The notes under the pieces were generated by a model. It was not told the origin of the DNA, searched no databases, and saw only the letters and a list, made by a program, of their open reading frames with translations. The translations under genes and the position numbers were made by a program. A stretch of DNA of 60,040 nucleotides from a virus. Each line of letters starts with the position of its first letter. Positions within the stretch are counted from its first letter, which is position 1. This document shows, in pieces, positions 1-60,040 of the stretch. The stretch covers positions 1 through 60,040 of the IMG/VR virus record IMGVR_UViG_3300044765_000177. The stretch is one strand, 5' to 3'.

Positions 1-23
1 GGCCCCGGCGCTGGGCCGGGGCC
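1..23 (-). terminator. GC-rich hairpin downstream of the 43..867 gene (9-bp stem GGCCCCGGC/GCCGGGGCC, 5-nt loop)
   Basis: Perfect inverted repeat read directly; lies just 3-prime of the minus-strand stop at 43. Confidence 0.6.
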
Positions 24-26
24 GCG
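1..26. repeat. Terminal direct repeat: identical to window positions 60015-60040
   Basis: ggccccggcgctgggccggggccgcg occurs at both window ends; consistent with an overlap from a circular or terminally redundant genome. Confidence 0.9.
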
Positions 27-42
27 GGGTGGTGCGGGTGGG

Positions 43-867
43 TCAGACGTCGGCGGTGTAGGCCTGCTTGGAGGCCATGCGGCCGCCGGTGGCGGCGACG
101 GCTTCCTGGATGCCGCCGTGGCGGGTGTGGATGTTCTGGGAGGACTGGGCGGCGATGGCCGCGTTGTCGACGGCGGCCTTCTGCAGGGCCTGGGCGGCGG
201 CGAGGGCGGCGGCGTACTGGTCGCGGAGGGCGGCGAGTTCCTGGAGGGTGCCGTCGTCGTCGCCGAACTCCAGGGCGGTGGCCTGCTCGATGGCGGCCTC
301 GATGGCGGCGAGCTGGTCGGCGGCGCGCTGGGCGATGGCGCCGGCTTCTTCGGCGGTGACGCCGGCTTCGGAGGCGAAGCGGGCGACGGCGGCCTTGAGG
401 GTGTTGACGCCGGTGATCTCGGGGATGGTGGCGAGGGCCATGGGTGCTCCTGTGGTGTCGGGTCGGATGTCGTTCTTGATCAGGACGAGGTTGCGGGTGC
501 CGGCCTCGGAGGGCGCCGGGTCGGGGTGGTGCGGTTCGGTGGTCTTCTCGGGGGCCGGGGCGGGCGCCGTCTGCGCCTCGGTGGCCTCGACGGGTTCGGG
601 CTGGGGGCGGCGGAAGCGTTCGGCGGCCCGCTTCTTCGCCTTGGGCCACTCGCGCTTGAAGCCGTCGAGGAACGCCTTGGTGAAGGTGCCGGCCGCGGTG
701 GCCGCGGTCGCGGACCAGGCGGCGAGCTTCGCGCCGGTGCGGCGGCCGTTCTTCTTGGCGGCCTTCCGCATCCGCTTCTTGTGCTTGGCGGACACCTCAC
801 CGAAGGCGCTTTCGAGGCCGCGGGCGCACGCCCAGGCGATCGCGAAGAGGAGGATCAGTCCGAGCAC
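43..867 (-). CDS. Membrane-anchored hypothetical protein (Spd-like position): N-terminal TM helix, basic region, Pro-rich linker, Ala-rich helical C-terminus; 274 aa
   Basis: ORF track; GTG start at 867, directly after the stop of the upstream gene at 869; non-junk composition. Confidence 0.75.
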   Translation of the reverse strand: MLGLILLFAIAWACARGLESAFGEVSAKHKKRMRKAAKKNGRRTGAKLAAWSATAATAAGTFTKAFLDGFKREWPKAKKRAAERFRRPQPEPVEATEAQTAPAPAPEKTTEPHHPDPAPSEAGTRNLVLIKNDIRPDTTGAPMALATIPEITGVNTLKAAVARFASEAGVTAEEAGAIAQRAADQLAAIEAAIEQATALEFGDDDGTLQELAALRDQYAAALAAAQALQKAAVDNAAIAAQSSQNIHTRHGGIQEAVAATGGRMASKQAYTADV

Positions 868-868
868 G

Positions 869-1336
869 TCAGCCCCCCATCAGCCACATGACGAGGGCGC
901 CGACCTGGGTGGCGATGACGCCGAGCCCGGTGGCCGCTGCGTCGCCGAGCGCGCCGGGGATCATCACGGTCAGCGGCGGGGCGAACGCGGCGAGGAGCAG
1001 GGTGCGGGTCTGCACACCGGTCATGAAGTCGCTGACCAGCCACAGCAGCACGGCCAGCGCCAGCGCGAACATGATCCCGAAGCCGGTCCACTGGCCGGCC
1101 AGGTCGTCGACGAGGCCGTCGACGGTGGTGGTGGCGTTGTTGATCCACCGACCGACCGGGGTGGACACGAGACCGATGGACGCGGTCAGGACGAGCAGGA
1201 CTTGGATCTGCGGGCCGCGGATCTTCGCGGCGAAGCGATTGATCCAGGGGAGCCGGTCGGCGACATACAGCACGCCGGCCGCTCCCAGGCAGGTTCCGCC
1301 GGTGGCGGCGGAGATCCCTGCGTCGATGACGGGCAT
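869..1336 (-). CDS. Polytopic membrane protein, Spd-like (155 aa)
   Basis: ORF track; ATG at 1336 preceded by AAGGGGG; several hydrophobic helices. Confidence 0.8.
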   Translation of the reverse strand: MPVIDAGISAATGGTCLGAAGVLYVADRLPWINRFAAKIRGPQIQVLLVLTASIGLVSTPVGRWINNATTTVDGLVDDLAGQWTGFGIMFALALAVLLWLVSDFMTGVQTRTLLLAAFAPPLTVMIPGALGDAAATGLGVIATQVGALVMWLMGG

Positions 1337-1467
1337 TTCGGGGTACCCCCTTGCGGTTACGGTGAGTTAGTGGTTTCCTCGCGCGCGCGTGCACGCGAGC
1401 GGGCGCGTTGGGATCCGTTGGCCCGGCGCGGGACGGCTTGAGCCATCCGTTGAGCCATCACGGACGG

Positions 1468-1701
1468 TTAGCTTTCGGCGATGGACTGGCGGAGCTGGTC
1501 GAGCATCTGGGTGGCCTTCGCGGCGGCGTCGGCCTGGGCGGTGTCGGGCAGTTGGGAGATCGCCGAGCGGAGCTGGTCCATGGCGACCGCCAGGACCGCG
1601 GCCGGTCCTTTCGTCTCCGCCTGCCGGCGACGCTCGCCGAGGAACTCGGCGGATCGGGCCTGTCGCAGAGCCTTGCGGGACGGGCGGCTGGCGGTCGCCA
1701 C
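1468..1701 (-). CDS. Small helical hypothetical protein (77 aa)
   Basis: ORF track; GTG at 1701 preceded by GAAGGAGGA. Confidence 0.7.
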   Translation of the reverse strand: MATASRPSRKALRQARSAEFLGERRRQAETKGPAAVLAVAMDQLRSAISQLPDTAQADAAAKATQMLDQLRQSIAES

Positions 1702-1738
1702 GGCTGGCTCCTCCTTCTGTCGTCGGGATCTCGGGTAG

Positions 1739-1783
1739 TCCGGGTCTGCTTGCCGGGTCTGCGAACGTTCCGCTCACCGGGTC
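1739..1783 (-). promoter_or_regulatory. Three same-orientation GACCCGG(A/C/T) repeats in an intergenic gap; candidate clt / TraB recognition repeats
   Basis: Plus strand TCCGGGTC 1739-1746, GCCGGGTC 1752-1759, ACCGGGTC 1776-1783; the first two lie in a 10-nt direct repeat CCGGGTCTGC. Confidence 0.45.
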
Positions 1784-1892
1784 ACTCACCGGCCGACCTG
1801 GGGTTTTGCTCGGTCGACTGCTTCCGGCAGTCTCAGCGAGGACCAGAACCCGGCGGGGTGCTGGGCCTCACTGGCGGTGCCGGACGCGGGGG

Positions 1893-2984
1893 CTAGCGGG
1901 TGGGGGCTGCTTCCTCGCGGGCCTCGATCTGGGACCAGGCGAGACGGACACGCTCCTCGCGGGCCCGGAAGCCGTGGCTGCGGAACTCGGCCTGCGCCTG
2001 CCGGTAGGAGCGGGGCGGCTCCATGTCGTAGCGGAGCCAGCGCAGGACCACATCGAGCTGTTCGTCGGACAGGCGGGCGCCCGGGATGGGCAGTTCGACG
2101 CCGGCGACGTCGGCGAGCATCTGGAGCGTGACCCCGTCCTCGACGGGCACCTGCTCCGCCCCCGTGTCCGTGCCCGTTTCGTCCTGGGTCACGGGCTCGA
2201 TGGTCACGGCCTCGATTTCCGGGGTGACCTGTGTGACCACCGTGTGACCATCCTGGTCGGCCGCACTGTGACCGGCAGCCGTGACCGCGGGCCGGGACAC
2301 GGCCAGCGCGAGGTCCCGCTGGGTGAACGCGAGGGCCTTCACGCCGTGCTCCTGCTCCGACTTCTCCAGCCGCTCCTCGGCCTTGGCCCGCGCCTTGTTG
2401 ATCTCGGCCTGGGCTCGCGTCAGCACGTCCGCCCGGGCGATCTGACGCTCCATCTCCGCGAGGTGGCCGGCCGTCTCAGTGAGCACGTCGGTGACCGCCT
2501 CGGACCGCAGATGCCGGGCCTCGGCCGCGGCCAGGGCACGGGCGTTGCGATCGGCCGCCGACTGCTCGGCGATCCGCGCCGCCGTTCCCGCGTCGGCGAG
2601 GACGTTCCCCGCGAACAGGCGCAGCCCCATGAACAAGGCCGCGGCGACCGGCACGAACGCGAACACCTTCGCATGGCCGAGGATCAGCAGGATCGTCGCC
2701 GAGACGCCGACAGCGACCGCGGACAGGCCCAGCATCACGGCCATCCCGACCCGCGACCGCTGCCGGATCGCGATCTCCGACATGCGCAGCGCGCCGATCC
2801 ACAAGGCGTCGTACACGACGGCGATCGACCAGGCGACGACCGTTCCCGCCTTCCCGTGCACACCGATCATCTCACCGAGCTGCCCGCCGACGGTGATCGC
2901 GACCAGCGCCAGCGACGCCGCCGTCAACAGCTTCTCGATCAGGGCGAACACGTCCAGGTGGGCGTATCGGCTGAAGTGCTTCAT
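1893..2984 (-). CDS. Membrane protein: ~4 TM helices at the N-terminus, coiled-coil middle, acidic C-terminal domain; resembles DUF2637-type proteins of actinomycete conjugative elements (363 aa)
   Basis: ORF track; ATG 2984 preceded by GGAAGGAGG; architecture read from the translation; family assignment from memory. Confidence 0.8.
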   Translation of the reverse strand: MKHFSRYAHLDVFALIEKLLTAASLALVAITVGGQLGEMIGVHGKAGTVVAWSIAVVYDALWIGALRMSEIAIRQRSRVGMAVMLGLSAVAVGVSATILLILGHAKVFAFVPVAAALFMGLRLFAGNVLADAGTAARIAEQSAADRNARALAAAEARHLRSEAVTDVLTETAGHLAEMERQIARADVLTRAQAEINKARAKAEERLEKSEQEHGVKALAFTQRDLALAVSRPAVTAAGHSAADQDGHTVVTQVTPEIEAVTIEPVTQDETGTDTGAEQVPVEDGVTLQMLADVAGVELPIPGARLSDEQLDVVLRWLRYDMEPPRSYRQAQAEFRSHGFRAREERVRLAWSQIEAREEAAPTR

Positions 2985-3062
2985 GGCCCCTCCTTCCAGG
3001 GGTGGGGGGCCGCCGCGCGAGACGAGGGGGTAGACGATCGCGCGGCGGCGGACTATGGCGGG

Positions 3063-3329
3063 TCAGGTGGTGGGCTTGGGGAGGGCGGTGCAGCCAATGG
3101 CGTGGTCCTGCGCCCAGTCGAGGATCTGGTCGCGGTAGGGAAGGTCGTGGCTCTTGGTCCGGCCGCAGGGCTGGCAGGTGGCGGTGACGCGGCCGGCCGC
3201 TTCGGTGAGGTCGACGGTGGCCCGGTAGTCGTCGTAGCGAAGTCCGATGCGGGTGAGGAAGCGGGCGACGACGCCCTCGGGCCATGCCTCGGCGGGGGCC
3301 TGCGGGGCGGTCTCGATGGTGGTGGTCAT
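3063..3329 (-). CDS. Small Cys-containing hypothetical protein, paralog of 3620..3943 (88 aa)
   Basis: ORF track; shared AWPEGVVAR(F/Y)L N-terminal motif and WAQxHAxxCxAxPxPT C-terminal motif. Confidence 0.8.
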   Translation of the reverse strand: MTTTIETAPQAPAEAWPEGVVARFLTRIGLRYDDYRATVDLTEAAGRVTATCQPCGRTKSHDLPYRDQILDWAQDHAIGCTALPKPTT

Positions 3330-3350
3330 GACGGTGGGTGTCCTTCCGGG

Positions 3351-3581
3351 TCAGGCGGCGGCGGGGGTGGCGACGAGGGCGTGGATCTCGTCCATCAGCG
3401 GCGACTCGTCGGGGTTCGCGGCGTCGTACATCTCGATCTCGTAGAGCGTCCAGTCGCGGGCGATCACGTCGCCCCGCCGGACGTCGGCCAGGTAGTCCGC
3501 GACGTACTTGGCGCGGACGTCCGCCGCGGCGGAGTCGAACGGGTCGCCGGCCGGGACCAGGGTCAGGGTGGGAGCAGACAT
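3351..3581 (-). CDS. Small acidic hypothetical protein (76 aa)
   Basis: ORF track; ATG 3581 with upstream purine-rich RBS. Confidence 0.7.
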   Translation of the reverse strand: MSAPTLTLVPAGDPFDSAAADVRAKYVADYLADVRRGDVIARDWTLYEIEMYDAANPDESPLMDEIHALVATPAAA

Positions 3582-3619
3582 GGGGGTGCCCTTTCAGGGG
3601 TGCGTGGAAGGTGGTGGGG

Positions 3620-3943
3620 TCAGGCGGTGGGGCGGGGCATGGCGCGGCACTTCTCGGCGTGGGCCTGCGCCCACTCGCGGGCCTGCGGCGTCGAGGTCTT
3701 GCCGCCCTCGTCGAAGCTGTCCTGCGACTGGCCGAACTCGGCGGCGTAACCGTCCCAGCCCCAGTCGACGGTGTGGGTGGCCGGGCAACCGCCGCACATC
3801 ACGTGGGTCTCGGTCGGCTCCGTCCGGCCGTGGAAGCCGGAACGCTCGGTGACGTCGACGAACGCGCCGCCGACGCTCAGGTAGCGAGCGACAACACCCT
3901 CGGGCCAGGCGGCGTGCTGGGCGGTGCTGGCGGAAGAAGGCAT
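3620..3943 (-). CDS. Small Cys-containing hypothetical protein, paralog of 3063..3329 (107 aa)
   Basis: ORF track; ATG 3943 preceded by GAGGAG; shared motifs with 3063..3329. Confidence 0.8.
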   Translation of the reverse strand: MPSSASTAQHAAWPEGVVARYLSVGGAFVDVTERSGFHGRTEPTETHVMCGGCPATHTVDWGWDGYAAEFGQSQDSFDEGGKTSTPQAREWAQAHAEKCRAMPRPTA

Positions 3944-3986
3944 GACGGATCTCCTCAGCTGGTCAAGCAGGAATGGGAAGTGGGAG

Positions 3987-4031
3987 CCGCGGGCGGGGGC
4001 CGTGGGGGATTTCGGTCATCCCCGCCCGCGG
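3987..4031 (-). terminator. 12-bp perfect-stem hairpin (CCGCGGGCGGGG / CCCCGCCCGCGG) after the 4044 gene
   Basis: Inverted repeat read directly. Confidence 0.55.
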
Positions 4032-4043
4032 CGGTCTGGGGTG

Positions 4044-4268
4044 CTACTTCGGCAGCGGGTGCTCGCTGCGCTGGTTGACGAGGTGCAGCTTCCGGCGCAG
4101 CTCGCCGTAGTTGACGAAGCCGGTCGCCAGCCGCTGCCCGGTCGCCGGGTCGGACACCGACACCGTCAGCAGCCGCTCACCGTCCACCGGCTCGGCCACC
4201 CGGGCGATCACCTCGTCCGCCTTCTGCTGCGCGGCAGCCATCCGGGCCAGGTCGTCGGCCACGGTCAC
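4044..4268 (-). CDS. Hypothetical protein (74 aa), start refined to GTG 4268
   Basis: The N-terminal 40 codons of track ORF 4044..4388 have poor third-position G+C; GTG at 4268 overlaps (GTGA) the stop of a high-GC3 micro-ORF. Confidence 0.65.
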   Translation of the reverse strand: MTVADDLARMAAAQQKADEVIARVAEPVDGERLLTVSVSDPATGQRLATGFVNYGELRRKLHLVNQRSEHPLPK

Positions 4269-4381
4269 CACCCCCGCACCTGCAGGGCGCGCCGGCGGGC
4301 GGCGGATTCGCGGGGCAGCGGCGGCAGGTCCGGCGTCGGCTCGACGCGGCGGAGGTCGACCGGCTTCTTCTCGGCGCTCAT
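4265..4381 (-). CDS. 38-codon micro-ORF (MSAEKKPVDLRRVEPTPDLPPLPRESAARRRALQVRGW), coupled on both sides
   Basis: ATG 4381 overlaps the upstream stop (ATGA); its TGA overlaps the downstream GTG; very high third-position G+C. Confidence 0.5.
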   Translation of the reverse strand: MSAEKKPVDLRRVEPTPDLPPLPRESAARRRALQVRGW

Positions 4382-4815
4382 GCGACACCGCCCAGCTTCG
4401 CGATGACCTTGCGGACGGCGCCGAGGCGGTCGATGGGGTCCTGGCCGGCGGGGACGACGATGGTGCGGCGGCCGACGGTCGGGTCGTGCACGGCCTGCAG
4501 GTGGGGGCGCAGCCTCTCGTCGAGGCTGCTGGTGTCCCACTCCTCCAGCTCGACGTCGTGCTCGGCGAGGAGGGCGGCCAGCGTGTCGCGGGCCTCCTGC
4601 TCGTCGGCCAGGCGCTCCACCTCGGCCAGCCGGCCGCGGAAGGCAGCGACCATGTCGCGCAGACGGGCCGGGCTGACCTCGGCGAAGTCGGACAGTTGGG
4701 GGCTCGTGGAGACGACGAGCGACAGGGCGCCGGTCTCGTCGTCCGCCATCACCTCGGCGTCGAGGGTGAGGCTGATCGAGCGCACCGCGGAGTGCGCTAG
4801 GTTGGCGTTAGCCAT
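4378..4815 (-). CDS. Hypothetical protein, first gene of the leftward Spd-like operon (145 aa)
   Basis: ORF track; clean acidic/helical composition. Confidence 0.75.
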   Translation of the reverse strand: MANANLAHSAVRSISLTLDAEVMADDETGALSLVVSTSPQLSDFAEVSPARLRDMVAAFRGRLAEVERLADEQEARDTLAALLAEHDVELEEWDTSSLDERLRPHLQAVHDPTVGRRTIVVPAGQDPIDRLGAVRKVIAKLGGVA

Positions 4816-4965
4816 CAGGGTCTCCCTATCAGGTACCTGATTGGTTAGGGCCGGCCTGCGAGGTAGGAGTCGCGGTGTCCGGCCCGATCTTCATTTGTGC
4901 AGCGCCCGCGGACCGAGTCCGGTAGGAGTGGGCACAGCTAGTAGGCCGCCTCGCGGTCGGCTTGG

Positions 4966-5065
4966 CGTCTACTTTGTTGCAGGACCACCATGGCACGGGC
5001 GCCAGTGCCGCCGCAACAAAGTGGACGAAGAATCTTGCTGCCCGTCTAGTCGGTGGACATCCACC
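4966..5065. promoter_or_regulatory. Divergent control region: 10-bp inverted repeat ACTTTGTTGC (4971-4980) / GCAACAAAGT (5013-5022) and palindrome GGTGGACATCCACC (5052-5065)
   Basis: Repeats read directly; located between divergent genes 4815(-) and 5084(+). Confidence 0.5.
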
Positions 5066-5083
5066 CGTGAGAACATCCTGGCT

Positions 5084-5332
5084 ATGGCAGCCAAGACCTC
5101 GACACTCAAGGGAACCCAGGAAGCGCAGTGGCTGCGCCGACTGGACAGAGCCACCGCCGCACACGAGAAGACCCGCCAGCGGCTCGACGACCTCGTGGCC
5201 GACGCCCGTGAAGCCGGCGTGTCCCTCACCGCCATCTCCGAGCACACCCCGTACAGCCGCGAGTGGGTGCGGACCATCGCCGCCCGCGTGCAGGCGGCCC
5301 GATCGGCAGAGGGCGACGCTCCCCAGGAGTGA
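5084..5332 (+). CDS. Small HTH-like DNA-binding protein (82 aa)
   Basis: In-frame ATG 5084 within track ORF 4841..5332; upstream part of the ORF is Arg/Pro junk. Confidence 0.65.
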   Translation: MAAKTSTLKGTQEAQWLRRLDRATAAHEKTRQRLDDLVADAREAGVSLTAISEHTPYSREWVRTIAARVQAARSAEGDAPQE

Positions 5333-5432
5333 CCCTTGGTGTCGACTTTGCATGCTCTGGAGTCAACCGGCGCCACAACGAAGCTGCCATGACCGACCGA
5401 TGCAGCGCCGGTGCACCCGGAGTGCAGTCGTG

Positions 5433-6107
5433 ATGCAGAACGCCCGAGACGAGCGGATAAGGGGCGCCAAAGTGGACGTCGTGACGTGGACGGGCCGGGA
5501 AGCGTGCGCCCTGCAGCAGGCCCTCCGCATGACGAACGACGACTTCGCCGACCACCTCGGCGTCGCGGTCCGCACGGTGGCGAACTGGCACTCCTCCCCC
5601 GGCACCGTGCCGCGCACCGAGATCCAGTCCGCCCTCGACACCGCCTACGAGAGGTCATCACCCTCGGTGCAACGACGCTTCAGCATCCTCACCCGCCCCG
5701 CCTCGGCCGCCGTCGAGGCCCAAGCCCTCCGCGTGGCCATCGCCATCGTCCTCAAGGGCGACGACGTACTCCTCGTCTGCCGCCGCGGCGAGGGCGAGAT
5801 CCGCTGGCAATTCCCGGCCGGCATGGTGAAGCCCGGCGCCGACCCGGCCACGGTCGCCGTGCAGGAGACCCACGGCGAGACCGGCGTGCACTGCACCGTC
5901 CGCGAGCAGCTGGGCGAGCGCGTCCACCCCAAGACGGGCGTCGTCGCCTCGTACTACCTCGCCGACCACCTCGCGGGCGAAGCGTCCAACCGGGACCCAC
6001 TGGAGAACGTCGACGTCACCTGGGCGCCGCGCTCGGCGCTGACCCGGTTCATCCCCGCAGACCAGATCTTCCCGCCCGTCCTGAGCGCCCTGGAGGTAGC
6101 CGCATGA
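5433..6107 (+). CDS. XRE-like HTH fused to a Nudix-fold domain with a degenerate Nudix box (224 aa); Pif-like
   Basis: ATG 5433 within track ORF 4962..6107; HTH LRMTNDDFADHLGVAVRTVANW; Nudix box reads GMVKPGADPATVAVQETHGETGV, with E->A, R->Q and E->G at conserved positions. Confidence 0.8.
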   Translation: MQNARDERIRGAKVDVVTWTGREACALQQALRMTNDDFADHLGVAVRTVANWHSSPGTVPRTEIQSALDTAYERSSPSVQRRFSILTRPASAAVEAQALRVAIAIVLKGDDVLLVCRRGEGEIRWQFPAGMVKPGADPATVAVQETHGETGVHCTVREQLGERVHPKTGVVASYYLADHLAGEASNRDPLENVDVTWAPRSALTRFIPADQIFPPVLSALEVAA

Positions 6108-6553
6108 CCGACACGACCACCGAGAAGCCCGGCATCTCCGCCGCGATCATCGTGGTCGGCGAGCGCGTGTTGATGGTGCGGCGCCGCATCTCCGAGGGCG
6201 AGCTGATGTGGCAATTCCCCGCCGGCGCCATCGAGCCGGGCGAGACGCCAGAGGAGGCGGCCGTGCGGGAGACCCTCGAAGAGACCGGCCTCGAGGTCAA
6301 GGCCATCCGGCTGCTGGGCGACCGGGTTCATCCGAAGACCCAGCGGGTCATGTCGTATACGGCCTGCGAGGCGGTGGCCGGTGAGGCGCGCGTTGCCGAC
6401 GCCGAGGAGCTGACGCAGATCGCCTGGGTGACGCACCGCGACCTGCCGGACTACGTGCCTTACGGGATCTTCGACAAGGTGCAGGAGTACCTGGACGCCA
6501 CCCTGACCCGGTCGCCGGACTACATCACGATCTTGTCGGAGCCGGTCGAGTAG
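6104..6553 (+). CDS. Nudix hydrolase with a canonical Nudix box (149 aa)
   Basis: ATG 6104 overlaps the upstream stop (ATGA); box GAIEPGETPEEAAVRETLEETGL matches Gx5Ex7REUxEExGU. Confidence 0.9.
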   Translation: MTDTTTEKPGISAAIIVVGERVLMVRRRISEGELMWQFPAGAIEPGETPEEAAVRETLEETGLEVKAIRLLGDRVHPKTQRVMSYTACEAVAGEARVADAEELTQIAWVTHRDLPDYVPYGIFDKVQEYLDATLTRSPDYITILSEPVE

Positions 6554-12446: not shown

Positions 12447-13273
12447 CAGAAGTCCTCGTCGTAGACGGATTGGTCGGTGGGGTTGCGGTAGGGCTCGTAG
12501 CCGCCGGAGACGGCGCGCAGCGGGGGGCGTCCATTGGGGTCCGGCGCGGGCGCGAACTTGTCCTCGTAGCGGCGTTCGCGGATCCAGTTGGCGGACTGCT
12601 TGATGAAGCGGAACTCCTGGCCGGCCATCTCTCGGGCGTAGGCCAGGGCGGCAGCGGAGATGGCGACGGGGTCGGCTCCGGCAAGGATGGCTTCGGTCCA
12701 GGCCTCGAGGGTCCGGTCGTAGTCCTTGCTCTTGGGGTGGTTGTGCCAGAAGCGGCCGAACTCCAGCTTCTCCTCGCTGCTGATCTGGCGGCCGGGAGCT
12801 CCAGCAGAAGCTTCTTCATCTACGTGGTTGCTGTGGTTCTGGTTATGGGGTCCGGTAGCCGGACCCCTAGAGGTCCGGTTTTCGGACCCCTGGGGTCCGG
12901 TAGCCGGACCCCTAGCGTTTTGCTTAGAGGTCCGGTTTTCGGACCCCTGGCCCTCGCCTAGAGGTCCGGTAGCCGGACCCCTAGAGGTGAAGTCGGGGCG
13001 CACGAAACCGACCGCCCCAGGGATCTTGTAGAGCGCCGCACGTGTGCCTCGCCCCTGCTCCAGCAGGTTCAGCTCACCGCTCTTGACGAGAGCATCGATG
13101 GCGGTGATGACGGACGATCGGGCGGCGTTGCTGAAGCGCACCAGCTCCGCGGTGCTGACCCGTGCCAAGCCGTCGTCGCCGGTGATCCGGTTGGCGATCG
13201 CCAGCATGACGTGCCGTCCGGCCCCCTTTGACTGGGAGTGGAGCCAGACCCAGTACATGGCGTCGATGCTCAC
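12446..13273 (-). CDS. Replication initiator-like protein: N-terminal winged-helix, repeat-containing linker, C-terminal domain (275 aa)
   Basis: ORF track; position upstream of loader and helicase; N-terminal wHTH-like segment; linker encoded by the iteron array. Confidence 0.7.
   Translation of the reverse strand: MSIDAMYWVWLHSQSKGAGRHVMLAIANRITGDDGLARVSTAELVRFSNAARSSVITAIDALVKSGELNLLEQGRGTRAALYKIPGAVGFVRPDFTSRGPATGPLGEGQGSENRTSKQNARGPATGPQGSENRTSRGPATGPHNQNHSNHVDEEASAGAPGRQISSEEKLEFGRFWHNHPKSKDYDRTLEAWTEAILAGADPVAISAAALAYAREMAGQEFRFIKQSANWIRERRYEDKFAPAPDPNGRPPLRAVSGGYEPYRNPTDQSVYDEDF
12849..12984. repeat. Five palindromic 22-nt repeats inside the initiator gene; candidate origin iterons
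   Basis: GGTCCGGTAGCCGGACCCCTAG at 12849, 12894, 12963; GGTCCGGTTTTCGGACCCCTGG at 12872, 12929; adjacent lower-G+C stretch at ~12800-12848. Confidence 0.6.
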
Positions 13274-24195: not shown

Positions 24196-25539
24196 ATGGC
24201 CTACGCCGAGAAGGTCTACAAGGTCAAGAACGGCAAGCAGACCAAGCAGTACACCTGGCGGGCCCGCTACAAGCGGCCGGACGGCACCTGGGGCAGCGAG
24301 CCCGGATTCCCGACGAAGACGCTGGCCAAGGAGTGGGGCGAGCAGCAGGAAGCCGCCATCCGGTCCGGCACGTGGATCGACCCGGAGAAGGCGCGCACCA
24401 AGTTCGGCGAGTGGGTGCAGATGTGGAAGACGGCCAACGTCAAGCGGCCCCGCACCCAGAGCAGTCGCGCCTACCTCCTGGACAAGCTGCTGCTGCCGGA
24501 GTGGGAGCACACCCCGCTGCAGGAGGTCAACAACGTCTTCGCCGTGAAGGCGTGGGCGACCCGGGCGGCCAAGCCGAACGGCAAGCACGACCCGGACACC
24601 GTCGCGCAGGCCCGGAGCCTGCTGTCGACGATCCTGTCCGGCGCCGAGGACGCCGGGTACATCCCGGCCAACAAGCTGTACGGGCGGCGCATCCTCGTCG
24701 GCGACGGGCACCACGAGGAGGAAGAGGAGGTGTGGGCGCAGCCCGACGAGATCTACCGCATCTACCAGCGCCTGAGCGGGGTGCACGCGCTCATGCCGCT
24801 GGCGGACTGCTATCTGGGGCTGCGCTGGGGCGAGCTCGCCGGCCTGCACCGCGACAACTGCCTCCTCAAGCGCGAGGAGAGGATCGACGGCAAGCCGTTC
24901 GTGCGGCACGTCGTCCGGGTGGACGCGAAGACCGGGTCGCTGCACGAGGACACCTTCGAGCTCGACGCCGACGGCCTGGAGGAGTGGCACCGGGCGGAGG
25001 ACGCCCGCCTCGAGGAGTACCGGGCCAAGGGGTGGAAGGCCAACCGGCGCAAGCCGCCCAAGAACATCGTGAAGCTGTACCTGGGGCCGCCCAAGAACAA
25101 GTACTCGGCGCGCGAGGTGGACGTCCCGGAGTTCCTGGTGCGCCTGCTCGCCGAGCACATCGAGGCGTGGCCGCACGAGCATCCGTTCTCCACGCCGGGC
25201 GGGCAGTTCTGGCGGCGCGGCAACTTCACGCGCGCCCAGCTGCGGCCCGCGGCCGACGGGCGGGAGGCGGTCCCCCGCAAGCGCGGGTTCGCCGGCCGGG
25301 AGGCGTGGGAGCCGATCCTGCCGGGCTTCACGATGCGCGGGGCCCGGCACACCCACGACACGTGGATGAAGGACGACGGGGTGGACAGGGCGCTGCGGTT
25401 CTTGACGATGGGGTGGGTGCCGAAGGACATTGAAGGGACCTACGAGCACGTGACGCCGGAGATGCGCAGGCACCGACTGCGGAGTCTGGAGGCGCGGTGG
25501 GAGCGCGGGATGCGGGTGGCGTCCCGGGCCGCACGGTGA
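24196..25539 (+). CDS. int: Tyrosine integrase (447 aa)
   Basis: ATG 24196; LGLRWGE (Arg), RGARHTHDTW (box II), EGTYEHV (Tyr); adjacent to the attP-like tRNA fragment. Confidence 0.9.
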   Translation: MAYAEKVYKVKNGKQTKQYTWRARYKRPDGTWGSEPGFPTKTLAKEWGEQQEAAIRSGTWIDPEKARTKFGEWVQMWKTANVKRPRTQSSRAYLLDKLLLPEWEHTPLQEVNNVFAVKAWATRAAKPNGKHDPDTVAQARSLLSTILSGAEDAGYIPANKLYGRRILVGDGHHEEEEEVWAQPDEIYRIYQRLSGVHALMPLADCYLGLRWGELAGLHRDNCLLKREERIDGKPFVRHVVRVDAKTGSLHEDTFELDADGLEEWHRAEDARLEEYRAKGWKANRRKPPKNIVKLYLGPPKNKYSAREVDVPEFLVRLLAEHIEAWPHEHPFSTPGGQFWRRGNFTRAQLRPAADGREAVPRKRGFAGREAWEPILPGFTMRGARHTHDTWMKDDGVDRALRFLTMGWVPKDIEGTYEHVTPEMRRHRLRSLEARWERGMRVASRAAR

Positions 25540-27359: not shown

Positions 27360-27474
27360 GCCAGCAAAGCCAGCCGCAGCCCGACGGCCGGGAGGTAGGG
27401 TTCGGGAAACAGTACGGCCCTCGCAGGTGCTACCAACACCAAGCGAGGGCCTGACCAGAGGAGTAGTGGTCCTC

Positions 27475-28074
27475 ATGGCTGCGCATCAGCCTACCCTTCG
27501 CGACCTGCCCAGCAAGTCTCCGGCCGGCTCATACGTCTACGTCCTCACCTTCAGCACGGGGATCATCAAGGTCGGATACACGGGCAATCCACGGCTTCGC
27601 CTCACCGCGTATCGCACCTCGCTCAGCCCTTTCGGGATCTCCATCGTCGACTACTGGTTCTCCGACCCGCACAGCGAAGCCGCGACCGGCGAGGCGGAGC
27701 TGTTGGACTTCTGCCGCCGGCAGGGGCGCCCCGTCAACGGCGGCGAGTACTTCACGCACATCGACTTCAGAGCCGTCGTCTCGTTCGCACGCACGTTGCC
27801 CTGTACGCCCGCCGACGTTCCGCCGGTTGCAGCGGCCGAGGCCCCGGCGAGCAGCACCCCCTGGAAGCAGGTGGCCGAGGTGATCCGGCAGCGGATCGCG
27901 GACGGCACGTACCCGCCTCGGACGCGCGTCCCCTCGGTCATCCAGCTGGCGACGGAGTTCGGGATCGCGCAGGCCACCGCGCAGAAGGTGCACCGCGGGC
28001 TCCGCGAGGAGGGCCTCATCTACACGGAGCCGGGCCTCGGGTCGTTCGTGAAGGCGCAGCCGCCCGGCTCGTAG
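27475..28074 (+). CDS. Fusion protein: N-terminal GIY-YIG-like T5orf172 domain + C-terminal GntR wHTH (199 aa)
   Basis: YVYVLTFSTGIIKVGYTGNPRLRLTAYR...GEYF, then WKQVAEVIRQRIADGTY...PSVIQLATEFGIAQATAQKVHRGL. Confidence 0.75.
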   Translation: MAAHQPTLRDLPSKSPAGSYVYVLTFSTGIIKVGYTGNPRLRLTAYRTSLSPFGISIVDYWFSDPHSEAATGEAELLDFCRRQGRPVNGGEYFTHIDFRAVVSFARTLPCTPADVPPVAAAEAPASSTPWKQVAEVIRQRIADGTYPPRTRVPSVIQLATEFGIAQATAQKVHRGLREEGLIYTEPGLGSFVKAQPPGS

Positions 28075-47402: not shown

Positions 47403-47804
47403 TCAGCGCCTGGAGACGGTGATGCGGACGAGGCCGCCCGGGTCGGCGAGACCCGTGCCGACGGCGATGGACCGCCACTGCAGGGTGTCGCCGGCGGTCA
47501 GGTCCAGGTTCGCGGCGGTACCCGACAGGGTGACGGTCTTCTCGTCGTTCGCGGCCGCGTTCACGCCGCTGGTCAGGGCCAGCGAGGCCACAGTGGTGGT
47601 GCCGGAGCCGGTCTGCCCCTTGCTGACCAGACTGACCGTGCGGCTGTTGGTGTCGGCGCCGGTGACAGCGGTCTCCGGCACGTACTCGACCTTGGTGACG
47701 GTGCAGTCGAACGGGGCCTGCCCGACGACCGTGTCATCCGAGGCGGCGGTGGCCACGGCCGGCACGTCGGCCTCGATGATGCGCACGTAGGGTGCGGTGG
47801 TCAT
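47403..47804 (-). CDS. Possible head decoration / capsid accessory protein (133 aa)
   Basis: ORF track; position directly after the major capsid gene; beta-rich composition. Confidence 0.6.
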   Translation of the reverse strand: MTTAPYVRIIEADVPAVATAASDDTVVGQAPFDCTVTKVEYVPETAVTGADTNSRTVSLVSKGQTGSGTTTVASLALTSGVNAAANDEKTVTLSGTAANLDLTAGDTLQWRSIAVGTGLADPGGLVRITVSRR

Positions 47805-56947: not shown

Positions 56948-57175
56948 TCAGGCGGCGCGGGCGCCTTCGGGCAGCGGCGGTGCCTGTCCGGGCGCGAGCT
57001 GCTCTCGCGTGTACTCGTCGCGGGGGGCTTTGATCAGGTCGAACACGTAGTAGCGGGCCTGTCGGCCCGTGCCGGTCTTCCGGATGCGGCCCTCGGAGGC
57101 CCAGCGCCAGATAGTGCCCACGGGCACGCCCGCGTAATAGGCTGCATCGGCGGCGGTGACGTAGCCGGGAGGCAT
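56948..57175 (-). CDS. Excisionase-family (HTH_17) DNA-binding protein at the head of the late operon (75 aa)
   Basis: VTAADAAYYAGVPVGTIWRWASEGRI; ATG 57175 after GGGGAGGTG. Confidence 0.75.
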   Translation of the reverse strand: MPPGYVTAADAAYYAGVPVGTIWRWASEGRIRKTGTGRQARYYVFDLIKAPRDEYTREQLAPGQAPPLPEGARAA

Positions 57176-57276
57176 GCTGCACCTCCCCCAGGAACGCCGA
57201 AGGGCCACCGCGCGCGCGATGACCCTGGGGACACTTGTATCAGATTGAACGAAGTTTCCTTCGGTCCTGGTCGGGA

Positions 57277-57282
57277 TGTCAA
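57277..57282 (-). promoter_or_regulatory. Perfect TTGACA -35-like hexamer in the lowest-G+C stretch upstream of the late operon
   Basis: Minus strand cTTGACAtcc...; only a weak -10 candidate (GAAACT) 18 nt downstream. Confidence 0.25.
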
Positions 57283-57311
57283 GTGGCTGGAGGTGCGGGC
57301 GAGTCGTCCGC

Positions 57312-57500
57312 TCAGCGGTCGAGGCGCCGCGTGACGACGGCGCCGCCAACGACGGCGATCACGATGTACACCGCCAGCCCGATCAACATGCGGCCGGTGC
57401 TCGGATCTCCGGGCAGCGCGATCAGGGCGAGAGCGATCACACCGAGGATGAGCGGGGCGAGAATCGTGTACAGCCAGTACAGGGAGTGGTAGCGCTCCAT
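57312..57500 (-). CDS. Small two-TM membrane protein (62 aa)
   Basis: ATG 57500 after AAGGAG; hydrophobic helices. Confidence 0.7.
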   Translation of the reverse strand: MERYHSLYWLYTILAPLILGVIALALIALPGDPSTGRMLIGLAVYIVIAVVGGAVVTRRLDR

Positions 57501-57511
57501 CGGGTGCTCCT

Positions 57512-57952
57512 TCAGTGCCGGTGGTTGGTCTTGGCGAAGAGCCCGGTCGTCTTGCTCTGCACGGTCCGCTGGTCGACGGGCCCGTTGTAGTGGTGGTGGT
57601 GCACGTCCGGGACCGCGGTGGCCGTCCGGCGCACGAGCCGGGCCAGGGCGAGGATCGGCACGGCGACCGCAGCAGGGGCCGCGCAGATGAGGCCGATGAC
57701 GGTGGGGTCGGCGTGCTCGGAGGCGACCAGGATCGCCGTGGCGACGAGGCCGGGCGGCACGGATGCCAGGCTGCAGTACATGACGGCCCGGCTGATCTCG
57801 GTGGCCTTCTGCGACATGGCCGGCGCTCCGGGCTGCTGAACGGGGGGCGTCGGGCCGTAGGCCGGCAGGGGGGTGTCGTCGCGGTAGGAGGTGGGCGGGC
57901 ACATGGCCTCTTCCACGGCGGCGACGAGCTTCGGGTCAGGCTGGACGGTCAC
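57512..57952 (-). CDS. Membrane protein directly downstream of the translocase gene, Spd-like position (146 aa)
   Basis: GTG 57952 after AGGAG; two hydrophobic helices; the rest of track ORF 57512..58687 overlaps the translocase gene and is junk. Confidence 0.7.
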   Translation of the reverse strand: MTVQPDPKLVAAVEEAMCPPTSYRDDTPLPAYGPTPPVQQPGAPAMSQKATEISRAVMYCSLASVPPGLVATAILVASEHADPTVIGLICAAPAAVAVPILALARLVRRTATAVPDVHHHHYNGPVDQRTVQSKTTGLFAKTNHRH

Positions 57953-57960
57953 GGGGGCTC

Positions 57961-59973
57961 CTAGGCTGCTTCGGCGAGGTCGGCGGGGGTGTCTGCGTGG
58001 TCGGGGTGGGCCCAGATGCCGCGGTCGACGGCGACAGCCAGGTCTTTGGCCTTGAGGCGGGTGAGGGCGTTCTTCACGGCGCTGACGGTGAGTCCGGTCT
58101 CCTGGGCGATGGTGTTGCGGCCGACGGGGCGGCCCCGTTCGGCGAGGAACGCGGCGACACGCTCGTCGGTGCCGGGGGGCGCTTCGGCTGCGATGGCAGC
58201 GGCGGCCCGGGCGATGGGGTCGCTGGACGGAACCATGCGGGCTGGGGCGGTGGGGCCATCGGCGAAGGCGTCGTCGGGCAGCACGGGGGTTTCGCCGCGG
58301 AGGCGGGCGGCGAGCCGGTCGAGGCGCTCGTGGTATGCCTTGCCGCAGACGGCGGCGGCGGACGGCTCGATGGTGGGGGTGTCGCCGGTGGTGGCCCAGT
58401 GGGCGGGGTCGCGGTCGAAGTAGGCGCGGAACTGGGCCTGCCGGTTGTCGGGGCCCTTGATGTAGCCGAGGCCGGCGGTGGACGTCTTGTCGGGCCAGTA
58501 CATGGGCAGCTGGCTGGGGTTGACGTCCCAGCCGGGCAGGCCGATGGAGTCGGTGAGCGTGGACGCGGTGCGGAACATGACGGTGTTGCCGGACTGGGCC
58601 TGCTCGCGGATGTCGGTGGACTCGGGGGCGTTGCCGAACATGTTGGCCTTGGGACCCTGGAACACGAGGCGGATCTTGATGCCGCACTTGCGGGCCATCT
58701 GGATGATCTCCAGGACGAGCGCGGGGGCGCCCGGCAAGTTGAGGACGCGGTGCGCCTCGTCGATGGTGACGGAGATCAGCGGGTCGGGGTCGCCGACGAC
58801 GAAGTGGTCGCGGCCGCGCAGCCGGCGGCCCTTATGGTCGGTCCACTCCATCATCGAGTAGCGGGCGGACCGCTCGTACATGACGTTGCGGACGGCGTGG
58901 AGCATGGCGAGGCCGCCCTGGGCGGTGTCCTCGTACCAGTCGACGGCCTCACGCCAGCGGGGCAGGGACTGTCCGCCCTGCGGGTCGCACACCCAGGAGA
59001 CGATGCCGTTGTGGCGTTCGGTGCCGAGCAGCATGTCGAGGAACCGGGACTTGCCGCCGTCGGTGGCGCCGTAGACGACGGTGTGGACGGGCCCGGACGG
59101 CTTCCAGAACGCGTAGTGGGCGGGGGCGCCGTCGTAGAACAGGCCGACGGTGGCCTGCCCGGTGGCGGTGTTGAGGATCTGGGGGCCGGGGTGGTCGACG
59201 GGCTTCTGCAGCGGGTTGCGGTCGAACACGGCGATGATGGCGCGCTTCGCGGACTGGCCGGTCGCCTTCTCGATCTGCAGCATCTCCTCGGGCAGGTCGA
59301 GGGCGCCGGCGATGTCGGCGGCGGCGGAGTGGGCCTGACGCCAGTTCCTGCGGCAGATGATGACGCCGGTCCAGCCGTAGCCGGTGGTGACGACGTCGAC
59401 GAGCTGGGAGCCGGGCAGGGGCCCGTCGGCGCAGGCGACGTCGTCCTGCCAGAGCTGCAGTTGCTTGCTGAGGGAAGGGGCCGGGGCGGCGGTCTTCTTG
59501 CCGCGGCGCCACCAGTAGATGCCGTGGCCGACGCCCCAGGCGACGCTGAGGGCCGGGTAGGGGCTGTCGCCGATCTGGAGTCCGCCGGTGGCGGCCATGG
59601 CGGTGACGAGGCTGCCGCCGGTGGTGACGGCGGAGGCGGCGGCGAGGAAGTCGCGGCGGGCGGGGAGCCGGCGGCGTAGGCGCTTCTTGCCGATGCGGGG
59701 GTTGCAGTAGCCCCAGACGGCGGTGGCTGCGGCGCCGGTGGCGGTGGCGGCGAGGGCGGTCTTCCAGCCGTCGTCGGGTACGGCGAGGGCGCTGCCGGCG
59801 ATGGCCTGGGCGGCGGTGGCGTAGAGGGGGGCCATGCCGCGGCGGGTGCGGTAGGCGAGGCGCAGCGCGCGCCGGGCGGCCTTGGTCTTGGGGTTGCGGG
59901 AGGAGCCGCGCTTGCGGGTCGTCGCACGGTCGTCGGTGCCGTTGGTCTTCTCGACGGTGATGGTCTTCGGCAT
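57961..59973 (-). CDS. traB: FtsK/SpoIIIE-family dsDNA translocase with TraB-like architecture: N-terminal TM helices, ATPase, C-terminal wHTH (670 aa)
   Basis: Walker A GATDGGKS, Walker B VTIDEAH; C-terminal NTIAQETGLTVSAVKNALTRLKAKDL. Confidence 0.88.
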   Translation of the reverse strand: MPKTITVEKTNGTDDRATTRKRGSSRNPKTKAARRALRLAYRTRRGMAPLYATAAQAIAGSALAVPDDGWKTALAATATGAAATAVWGYCNPRIGKKRLRRRLPARRDFLAAASAVTTGGSLVTAMAATGGLQIGDSPYPALSVAWGVGHGIYWWRRGKKTAAPAPSLSKQLQLWQDDVACADGPLPGSQLVDVVTTGYGWTGVIICRRNWRQAHSAAADIAGALDLPEEMLQIEKATGQSAKRAIIAVFDRNPLQKPVDHPGPQILNTATGQATVGLFYDGAPAHYAFWKPSGPVHTVVYGATDGGKSRFLDMLLGTERHNGIVSWVCDPQGGQSLPRWREAVDWYEDTAQGGLAMLHAVRNVMYERSARYSMMEWTDHKGRRLRGRDHFVVGDPDPLISVTIDEAHRVLNLPGAPALVLEIIQMARKCGIKIRLVFQGPKANMFGNAPESTDIREQAQSGNTVMFRTASTLTDSIGLPGWDVNPSQLPMYWPDKTSTAGLGYIKGPDNRQAQFRAYFDRDPAHWATTGDTPTIEPSAAAVCGKAYHERLDRLAARLRGETPVLPDDAFADGPTAPARMVPSSDPIARAAAAIAAEAPPGTDERVAAFLAERGRPVGRNTIAQETGLTVSAVKNALTRLKAKDLAVAVDRGIWAHPDHADTPADLAEAA

Positions 59974-60014: not shown

Positions 60015-60040
60015 GGCCCCGGCGCTGGGCCGGGGCCGCG
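60015..60040. repeat. Terminal direct repeat: identical to window positions 1-26
   Basis: Same 26-mer as at the window start. Confidence 0.9.

Follow-up and report, generated by a model that had tools for sequence, protein, structure and literature searches.

The gap at positions 1702-1892 of the viral contig analyzed here (the window, all 60,040 nt of the record) is a real, conserved, non-coding cis element of ~150 nt that lies beside DNA-transfer genes and is undescribed in the sources we searched. By comparing sequences across replicons, we detected this element in 106 PLSDB plasmids, 58 GTDB species genomes, and 4 IMG/VR contigs and resolved it into two parts, a conserved hairpin domain (part A) and a set of GACCCGG repeats (part B). 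An initial annotation of the window, made from the sequence alone, had proposed the repeats as a candidate clt, the sequence recognized by TraB. We consider the reading of the gap as a clt, that is, as a recognition and loading site of TraB, to be partly supported and give it a probability of roughly 0.5. This reading is plausible because the motif is the consensus published for plasmid pSVH1 and because the 670-aa protein of the same module models as a TraB-type translocase. In its favor stand the motif, the TraB-type protein, and the conserved synteny; against it stand the base-pairing covariation of the repeats, their location relative to traB, and the unlike winged helices of the translocases concerned. 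More tentatively, we propose that a family of temperate Streptomyces phages took up a complete Spd/TraB module together with its cis site, that their DNA may be pumped between compartments or mycelia without virions, and that the cis site is an undescribed, widespread structured element of ~150 nt in which the TraB copies double as helix arms, serving both as DNA loading site and as regulatory RNA.

A conserved element in the transfer module

The module lies on the minus strand in the order spdB2-like gene, element, 77-aa gene, 155-aa gene, 274-aa gene, and 670-aa gene. The SpdB2-like membrane protein (363 aa, 1893..2984, minus strand) was assigned by its homologues, of which the one in SLP2 is annotated "spdB2-like," and its gene ends with a stop codon 8 nt before part A. 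Directly downstream of the gap lies the 77-aa gene (1468..1701, minus strand), which is conserved in three related loci (L049, L061, and L191) and has a GGAGGAG ribosome-binding site 7 nt before its GTG start; the last GACCCGG copy (copy 4) is 38 nt from this start codon. The gap had been called non-coding, and it is truly intergenic, with conserved homologues for both the upstream 363-aa and the downstream 77-aa gene. The next two genes, both with GC3 support and conserved synteny, encode a 155-aa hydrophobic protein (869..1336, minus strand), probably a membrane protein as judged by eye from its translation, and a 274-aa protein (43..867, minus strand). Because the first and last 26 nt of the window are identical, this 60-kb JGI contig is circular and whole, and the operon therefore continues across the junction with the 670-aa gene (57961..59973, minus strand), 83 nt past the 274-aa gene. 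As the initial annotation had it, the product of this gene is modeled as a TraB-type double-stranded-DNA translocase with a C-terminal winged helix: the AlphaFold2 model (pLDDT 78) has N-terminal membrane helices, an FtsK-like motor, and a winged helix at residues 602-655, and Foldseek matched it to the FtsK motor 6t8o (E value of 1.5e-12). Pfam and NCBIfam gave no match for the 670-aa protein, and none of Pfam, NCBIfam, and PHROGs names the TraB-like protein, the SpdB2-like protein, or the three small module proteins. Two further observations concern the surroundings of the module. At the contig junction, the 83 nt that separate the 274-aa gene from traB contain a GC-rich hairpin, GGCCCCGGC-GCTG-GGCCGGGGCC (window positions 1-23 and 60015-60037). 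Furthermore, two adjacent NUDIX-type ORFs (~5400-6550, plus strand) are divergent from the spd genes, and the same pair accompanies the module in a prophage (L191); genes of this type are characteristic of integrating conjugative elements in actinomycetes.

When positions 1-5000 of the window were compared with PLSDB by megablast, the sole match was this gap, which aligned at 82% identity with an unannotated, syntenic gap in a plasmid of Streptomyces sp. CdTB01. The 106 PLSDB plasmid records were retrieved by sensitive blastn, every match lying in unannotated DNA, whereas the 58 GTDB loci come from a pattern scan built on invariant columns and the 4 IMG/VR loci from a related pattern; with part B alone as query, 41 Streptomyces-type plasmids and one weak Sphingobium match were obtained. 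Among close relatives, blocks A and B are kept while the spacers and neighboring genes diverge, and the number of repeats changes by whole 13-nt units, with two tandem units in the window and three in the CdTB01 plasmid. The position is likewise constant, directly 3' of the SpdB2-like gene and upstream of an FtsK/TraB-type translocase gene. In SLP2, for instance, the element lies between the spdB2-like gene and an FtsK/SpoIIIE gene, other plasmids being syntenic, and in nearly all repeat-carrying loci the SpdB2-like homologue ends 0-38 nt ahead of part A. Some copies reside on chromosome-sized contigs (L057 and L191). It is this comparison with other genomes that settles the cluster as real; the claim that the repeats sit inside a transfer module is also borne out, since the cluster is conserved in a fixed orientation and linked to spd/tra genes across more than 100 replicons. 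A comparison by eye revealed no evident resemblance between the C-terminal winged-helix sequences of translocases of the SLP2 type (~540 aa) and of the window type, yet the motif is common to both.

Several individual loci showed additional features. The CdTB01 plasmid (L001, 1..1572 and 3001..5559) encodes both a window-type TraB homologue (862 aa, annotated as hypothetical) and, as a separate gene, a "DNA translocase FtsK," downstream of the same element. SLP2-type loci (e.g., L002, 9160-9230) carry a further conserved stretch, AAATCGAA..TATGCTCGC..GATCAC..GAAGGAG, ~40-90 nt past copy 4; it precedes the translocase start codon, is missing from the window, and may represent a promoter and leader. 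Elsewhere in the window, positions 47590-47606 match the 5' end of part A with two mismatches, which is within chance expectation.

GACCCGG repeats and base-pairing covariation

The three GACCCGG copies described for the gap are exact matches on the minus strand, at 1740-1746, 1753-1759, and 1777-1783, and their eighth bases are A, C, and T, as reported. The 10-nt direct repeat CCGGGTCTGC was also found where it had been placed (1740-1749 and 1753-1762), and it forms part of a 13-nt tandem unit, GCAGACCCGGCAA. Alignment with relatives adds a fourth, degenerate member, so that 57 nt of the minus strand hold three exact 7-mers and one degenerate copy. In the direction of transcription of the module, these are copy 1 (CGGCCGG, 1789..1795, minus strand), in which just the CCGG core is left where relatives carry the full GACCCGG; copy 2 (GACCCGGT, 1776..1783, minus strand), which aligns with copy 2 of the relatives; a small hairpin supported by covariation (hairpin 2, GCGGAACGTTCGC, 1761..1773, minus strand); copy 3 (GACCCGGC, 1752..1759, minus strand), likewise placed by alignment with relatives; and copy 4 (GACCCGGA, 1739..1746, minus strand), an exact match to the published pSVH1 8-mer. 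A looser inverted copy, GAACCCGG, had been noted at 1846-1853 on the plus strand. The sequence is present, but we do not regard it as a recognition copy, because it forms the 3' arm of the part A hairpin, which covaries, and relatives do not retain it as a motif copy.

Within the window, GACCCGG occurs 44 times compared to 32 ± 5.3 expected, with 31 copies on the minus and 13 on the plus strand. Counting thus reveals a modest local cluster: three same-strand copies within 37 nt start to start have a P value of ~0.005 under random placement for this prespecified 7-mer, and no such cluster arose in 400 third-order Markov simulations. Each simulated sequence, however, contained 0-4 chance clusters of some 7-mer, and evidence from the window alone is for this reason suggestive at best. 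The statement that the cluster is hard to dismiss as chance therefore holds only once other genomes are compared. The strand skew of ~2:1 is not peculiar to the window, as the flanks of 67 related loci have a similar one (194 sense and 104 antisense copies); a probable cause is that the motif reads GAC CCG when it lies on the coding strand. A polarity like that of the KOPS sequences of FtsK was considered and rejected, the skew being equal in the flanks of related loci and nothing requiring such a polarity. Clusters of the motif are also common in viral contigs. Our IMG/VR scan for three spaced GACCCGG copies returned at least 120 matches (L067-L186), and the inspected ones (GC content of >62%) were Asp-Pro or similar coding repeats, as GAC CCG encodes Asp-Pro; a cluster of the 7-mer alone is therefore not diagnostic of a clt. 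One more loose group of GACCCGG copies is found on the plus strand of the window, at 24558-24615.

The picture is clearer across the 67 loci found by the part A pattern. There, part B (1739-1796 in the window) most commonly has four GACCCGG copies, and the sense-strand motif reaches 15.7 per kb over the 140 nt that follow part A compared to 0.365 per kb in the flanks (a 43-fold enrichment), with no antisense copy in these 140 nt in any of the 67 loci. Copies are spaced by 12-13 nt within pairs and by 24-30 nt across the small hairpin. The GAC of each copy, which stays unpaired, has a conservation of 95-99%, suggesting that it is recognized in a sequence-specific manner. In hairpin 2, by contrast, the stem sequence varies between loci while complementarity is kept: its variable pairs are paired in 91% of cases compared to 67% in shuffles, a value reached by 0 of 5,000 shuffles (end-anchored pair counts; a MAFFT alignment of hairpin 2 alone was set aside for its misplaced gaps). 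We therefore rejected a relation of hairpin 2 to the SpdA palindrome (sps), a conserved 12-bp palindrome inside spdA genes.

The repeats themselves are not simple direct repeats. RNAalifold, given a MAFFT alignment built without fitting to a structure, joins the outer copies (1 and 4) to each other and the inner copies (2 and 3) to each other by way of their palindromic CCGG cores and places hairpin 2 at the tip. Compensatory changes occur at 7 of the 15 pairs of part B, which none of 500 shuffles reached, and slid controls were only 14-55% paired. Where copies deviate from the consensus, they do so in complementary fashion (CTGG with CCAG four times, CTGG with a CAG partner three times, and CCAG with CTGG three times); parallel variants, that is, CTGG/CTGG or CCAG/CCAG, were absent among the copies. 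Altered specificity of a binding protein or gene conversion among the repeats would yield parallel changes instead, and a model of protein sites on double-stranded DNA does not predict complementary covariation. Moreover, several positions are predominantly G·U wobbles, and this is so for the sense strand only (in 41 of 41 sequences, U·G at one position; in 32 of 41, G·U at another; in 33 of 41, U·G at a third; and, at a fourth, 16 G·U compared to 1 A·C). Together, the complementary variants and the sense-strand wobbles indicate a folded single strand, probably RNA, the G·U bias being more in line with a sense-strand RNA than with a cruciform. A neutral source of covariation is template switching during mutation of imperfect palindromes, although it would not yield the G·U bias.

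Part A (1814..1887, minus strand), the conserved domain right after the SpdB2-like stop codon, is folded by a 7-bp outer stem (TCCGGCA at 1884-1878 with TGCCGGA at 1829-1823) that encloses a long inner hairpin (1873-1834) with the palindrome GACTGC-CGGAA-GCAGTC. The outer stem is invariant, in part because the search pattern required it. The 18 pairs of the inner stem are 94.7% paired and show compensatory changes at 10 pairs, and for the 25-pair structure including the outer stem, none of 500 shuffles attained the observed values. When the window RNA is folded by minimum free energy, this structure is recovered. In nine loci (L025, L026, L044, L045, L047, L053, L054, L059, and L064), part A occurs without repeats, directly 3' of a gene for a 530- to 690-aa coiled-coil/HTH protein with an SpdB-like C terminus and followed by a ribosome-binding site and a gene. 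Part A is thus tied to spdB2 rather than to the repeats and constitutes an independent module.

These data raise the possibility that the element is only a structured RNA, an intercistronic cis regulator of the spd-tra transcript (an attenuator, an antiterminator, a processing or stability site, or a protein-binding leader) in which the CCGG cores pair, the GAC trinucleotides lie in internal loops, and the likeness to the TraB motif arises from constraints on the RNA. We regard this as a possible but not a probable explanation. It would account for the covariation in four helices of an alignment not fitted to structure, for between-copy changes that are complementary and never parallel, and for G·U wobbles fixed on the sense strand; the fold z-score is also lower on the sense (-2.8) than on the antisense strand (-1.6), and the element invariably occupies the coding strand, flanked by two genes of the same orientation. 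In the window, a promoter has no room between copy 4 and the start codon, and the nine loci with part A alone after SpdB-like genes fit an RNA as well. On the other hand, the repeat would then match by coincidence a 7- to 8-mer that was experimentally assigned to TraB, template switching could give complementary changes without selection, and an Rfam family is absent: a search of Rfam 15 gave no match save spurious miRNA hairpins far below thresholds. Neither an intrinsic terminator nor a sigma-70-like promoter was found in 1300-2200. The folding strand is presumably transcribed, as suggested by its place between cistrons on the coding strand and by the asymmetry of the G·U pairs. A role as a structured RNA has support of its own but is, in any case, compatible with a clt, and both layers may coexist.

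Candidate clt function and other possible binders

The argument for a clt starts from the motif. The initial annotation had given the recognition sequence of the pSVH1 TraB correctly, since 5'-GACCCGGA-3' is the consensus given in a review (PMC5133688). In general, clt regions carry 8-bp direct repeats that are recognized by the cognate TraB (PMC4447253), the repeats being read by helix alpha-3 of the TraB winged helix, and known clt loci combine direct and inverted repeats (PMC3583192). The element shares this architecture, as it has direct and inverted repeats (the part A hairpin, hairpin 2, and four copies) beside tra/spd genes, as in Streptomyces clt loci. It differs in location, being placed neither at the 3' end of tra, as in pWTY27, nor beside korB, as in pIJ101; it is found 3' of spdB2 and ~2.1 kb upstream of traB. 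We also looked for a clt at the traB 3' end and rejected this placement, as 57100-58300 holds no repeat cluster.

Given these features, we propose that the element is a conserved cis-acting site of the Spd/TraB module for the transfer of double-stranded DNA and its most likely clt. It is laid out with the part A hairpin after spdB2 and then part B, in which two pairs of copies flank the small hairpin. The C-terminal winged helices of a hexameric, FtsK-like TraB would recognize the replicon at the part B copies. The site would act in cis, with TraB loading there and then pumping the replicon through hyphal membranes or cross-walls. At the same time, the sense transcript most likely folds by pairing the CCGG cores of copies 1 and 4 and those of copies 2 and 3. 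As the covariation indicates folding as a single strand, the element probably also acts at the RNA level, for example, on read-through, processing, or translation into the downstream tra genes.

The SpdB2-like protein is a rival binder, because a homologue 84% identical to the window protein carries the Pfam domain PF27079 (HTH_SpdB_C), and it is precisely the C-terminal ~75 aa that are conserved in this family. If the element were its binding site, the helix-turn-helix would tether DNA to an SpdB2 pore for mycelial spreading rather than load TraB. The SpdB2-like gene is indeed the one constant neighbor of part A, its stop codon being within 0-38 nt in nearly all repeat-carrying loci, and the nine loci with part A alone likewise follow an SpdB-like coiled-coil/HTH gene; translocases vary, while SpdB2 and the element stay together. 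The SpdB2 protein of pSVH1 has also been reported to bind double-stranded DNA and to interact with TraB. Yet the reported DNA binding is non-specific, the motif has been assigned to TraB, and the base-pairing covariation would be left unexplained here, too, so that we judge this binding site unlikely.

We see still less reason to view the repeats as the operator of a GntR-type TraR/KorA repressor or as a promoter element for downstream kil-type genes. Streptomyces transfer operons are known from published work to be controlled by repeat-binding GntR repressors, GntR genes occur in the window (27427..28074) and near related loci, and SLP2-type plasmids have the element ~100 nt upstream of the translocase start. 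However, the pSVH1 TraR operator (TTTGGTACACAACT) is unlike GACCCGG and sits between the divergent traR and spdB3, the GntR genes lie far from the element (25 kb in the window) and are not syntenic with it, and the search of 1300-2200 revealed no sigma-70-like promoter; we rejected a GntR/TraR operator on sequence and position. Finally, a functionless chance grouping of a common GC-rich 7-mer through a recent 13-nt tandem duplication, in line with the 44 copies in 60 kb, with two of the three copies falling within the tandem unit, and with the 0-4 clusters of some 7-mer in simulated sequences, is refuted by the comparative data, namely, by more than 160 replicons that keep the element at the same syntenic position while flanks diverge and by the 43-fold enrichment with zero antisense copies.

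Known clt systems and the phage-like replicon

The closest parallel to the candidate clt is that of pSVH1 from Streptomyces venezuelae, with which we compared the element via the published consensus, as there was no pSVH1-like record among the plasmid matches listed. Both have several same-orientation copies of the same 7- to 8-mer and an FtsK-like TraB with a C-terminal winged helix encoded nearby, and the published pSVH1 operon (spdB3-spd79-spdB2-orf108-traB) shares with the window the order spdB2, small gene(s), and traB. In contrast, pSVH1 is a 12-kb rolling-circle plasmid and the window a 60-kb phage-like genome; here, the copies belong to a covarying fold with a conserved hairpin domain ahead of it, and the eighth base, A in pSVH1, is most commonly C in the element family. 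The clt loci of pIJ101, pJV1, and pWTY27 are also short, non-coding, and composed of direct and inverted repeats beside transfer genes, and in the cases tested their cognate Tra proteins bind them (PMC3583192). Their repeats differ from ours (GC/AAAC; CCGCACA[C/G][C/G]; TGACACC and CCCGCCC), their sites lie beside korB or at the tra 3' end (the pWTY27 clt was mapped to the 3' end of its tra gene; PMC3583192), and base-pairing covariation is not reported for them in the literature examined. On the S. coelicolor chromosome, 25 clusters of four GACCCGGA-type motifs (clc) have been described (PMC5133688); these are dispersed chromosomal clusters, whereas the element described here is a fixed part of a mobile module and is joined to part A. 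FtsK with KOPS and SpoIIIE with SRS likewise provide FtsK-family winged helices that read an 8-bp motif, but those motifs are dispersed and skewed along chromosome arms and do not form a single local cluster.

The element matters, first, as a candidate for a general clt, since one conserved element beside spdB2 in more than 100 plasmids and prophages can be tested directly. In the literature examined, clt sites are defined for just a few small plasmids, and we found none described for SLP2-type large plasmids; for pSAM2, the model integrating element, no clt has been described (PMC9513070). Second, covariation between recognition copies is unexpected for a protein site on duplex DNA and suggests either a regulatory RNA that overlaps the clt or a need for folded DNA, and either would alter our understanding of TraB recognition.

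Third, the replicon that carries the module is a temperate-phage-like genome and not a plasmid. Its large terminase shares 70% identity with its counterpart in Streptomyces phages Rowa, Nesbitt, and SF1, and it further encodes an SPP1-type portal, a major capsid protein, DnaB, a DnaC-like loader, a DNA polymerase III beta clamp, a recombination directionality factor, and integrases; a 1471-aa gene probably encodes the tape measure protein, judging from its size and position. Since the replicon is of this kind, the module would spread phage DNA without virions. The same module is found beside packaging genes in the prophage L191, on an 8.5-Mb chromosome, and the portal of this prophage is just 30% identical to that of the window, from which we conclude that the module is a mosaic accessory of temperate phages. 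Its presence in both a phage-like genome and beside packaging genes suggests that phage DNA may spread through mycelial hosts independently of virions, which would be a new way for phages to spread. Neither the element nor the TraB-like and SpdB2-like proteins matched any of 50,697 deposited phage records, including pZL12 (phage ZL12). The latter resembles the window in being a circular Streptomyces element with both phage genes and functions for conjugal transfer but has no match to this element or to the TraB-like or SpdB2-like protein.

The window contains one more repeat array. At 12849-12988, five copies of a ~22-nt palindromic unit, GGGGTCCGG-(TAG/TTTT)-CCGGACCCC-TAGA, adjoin a small ORF of winged-helix type and the genes for DnaB and the DnaC-like protein, and these units look like the iterons of a replication origin or a centromere.
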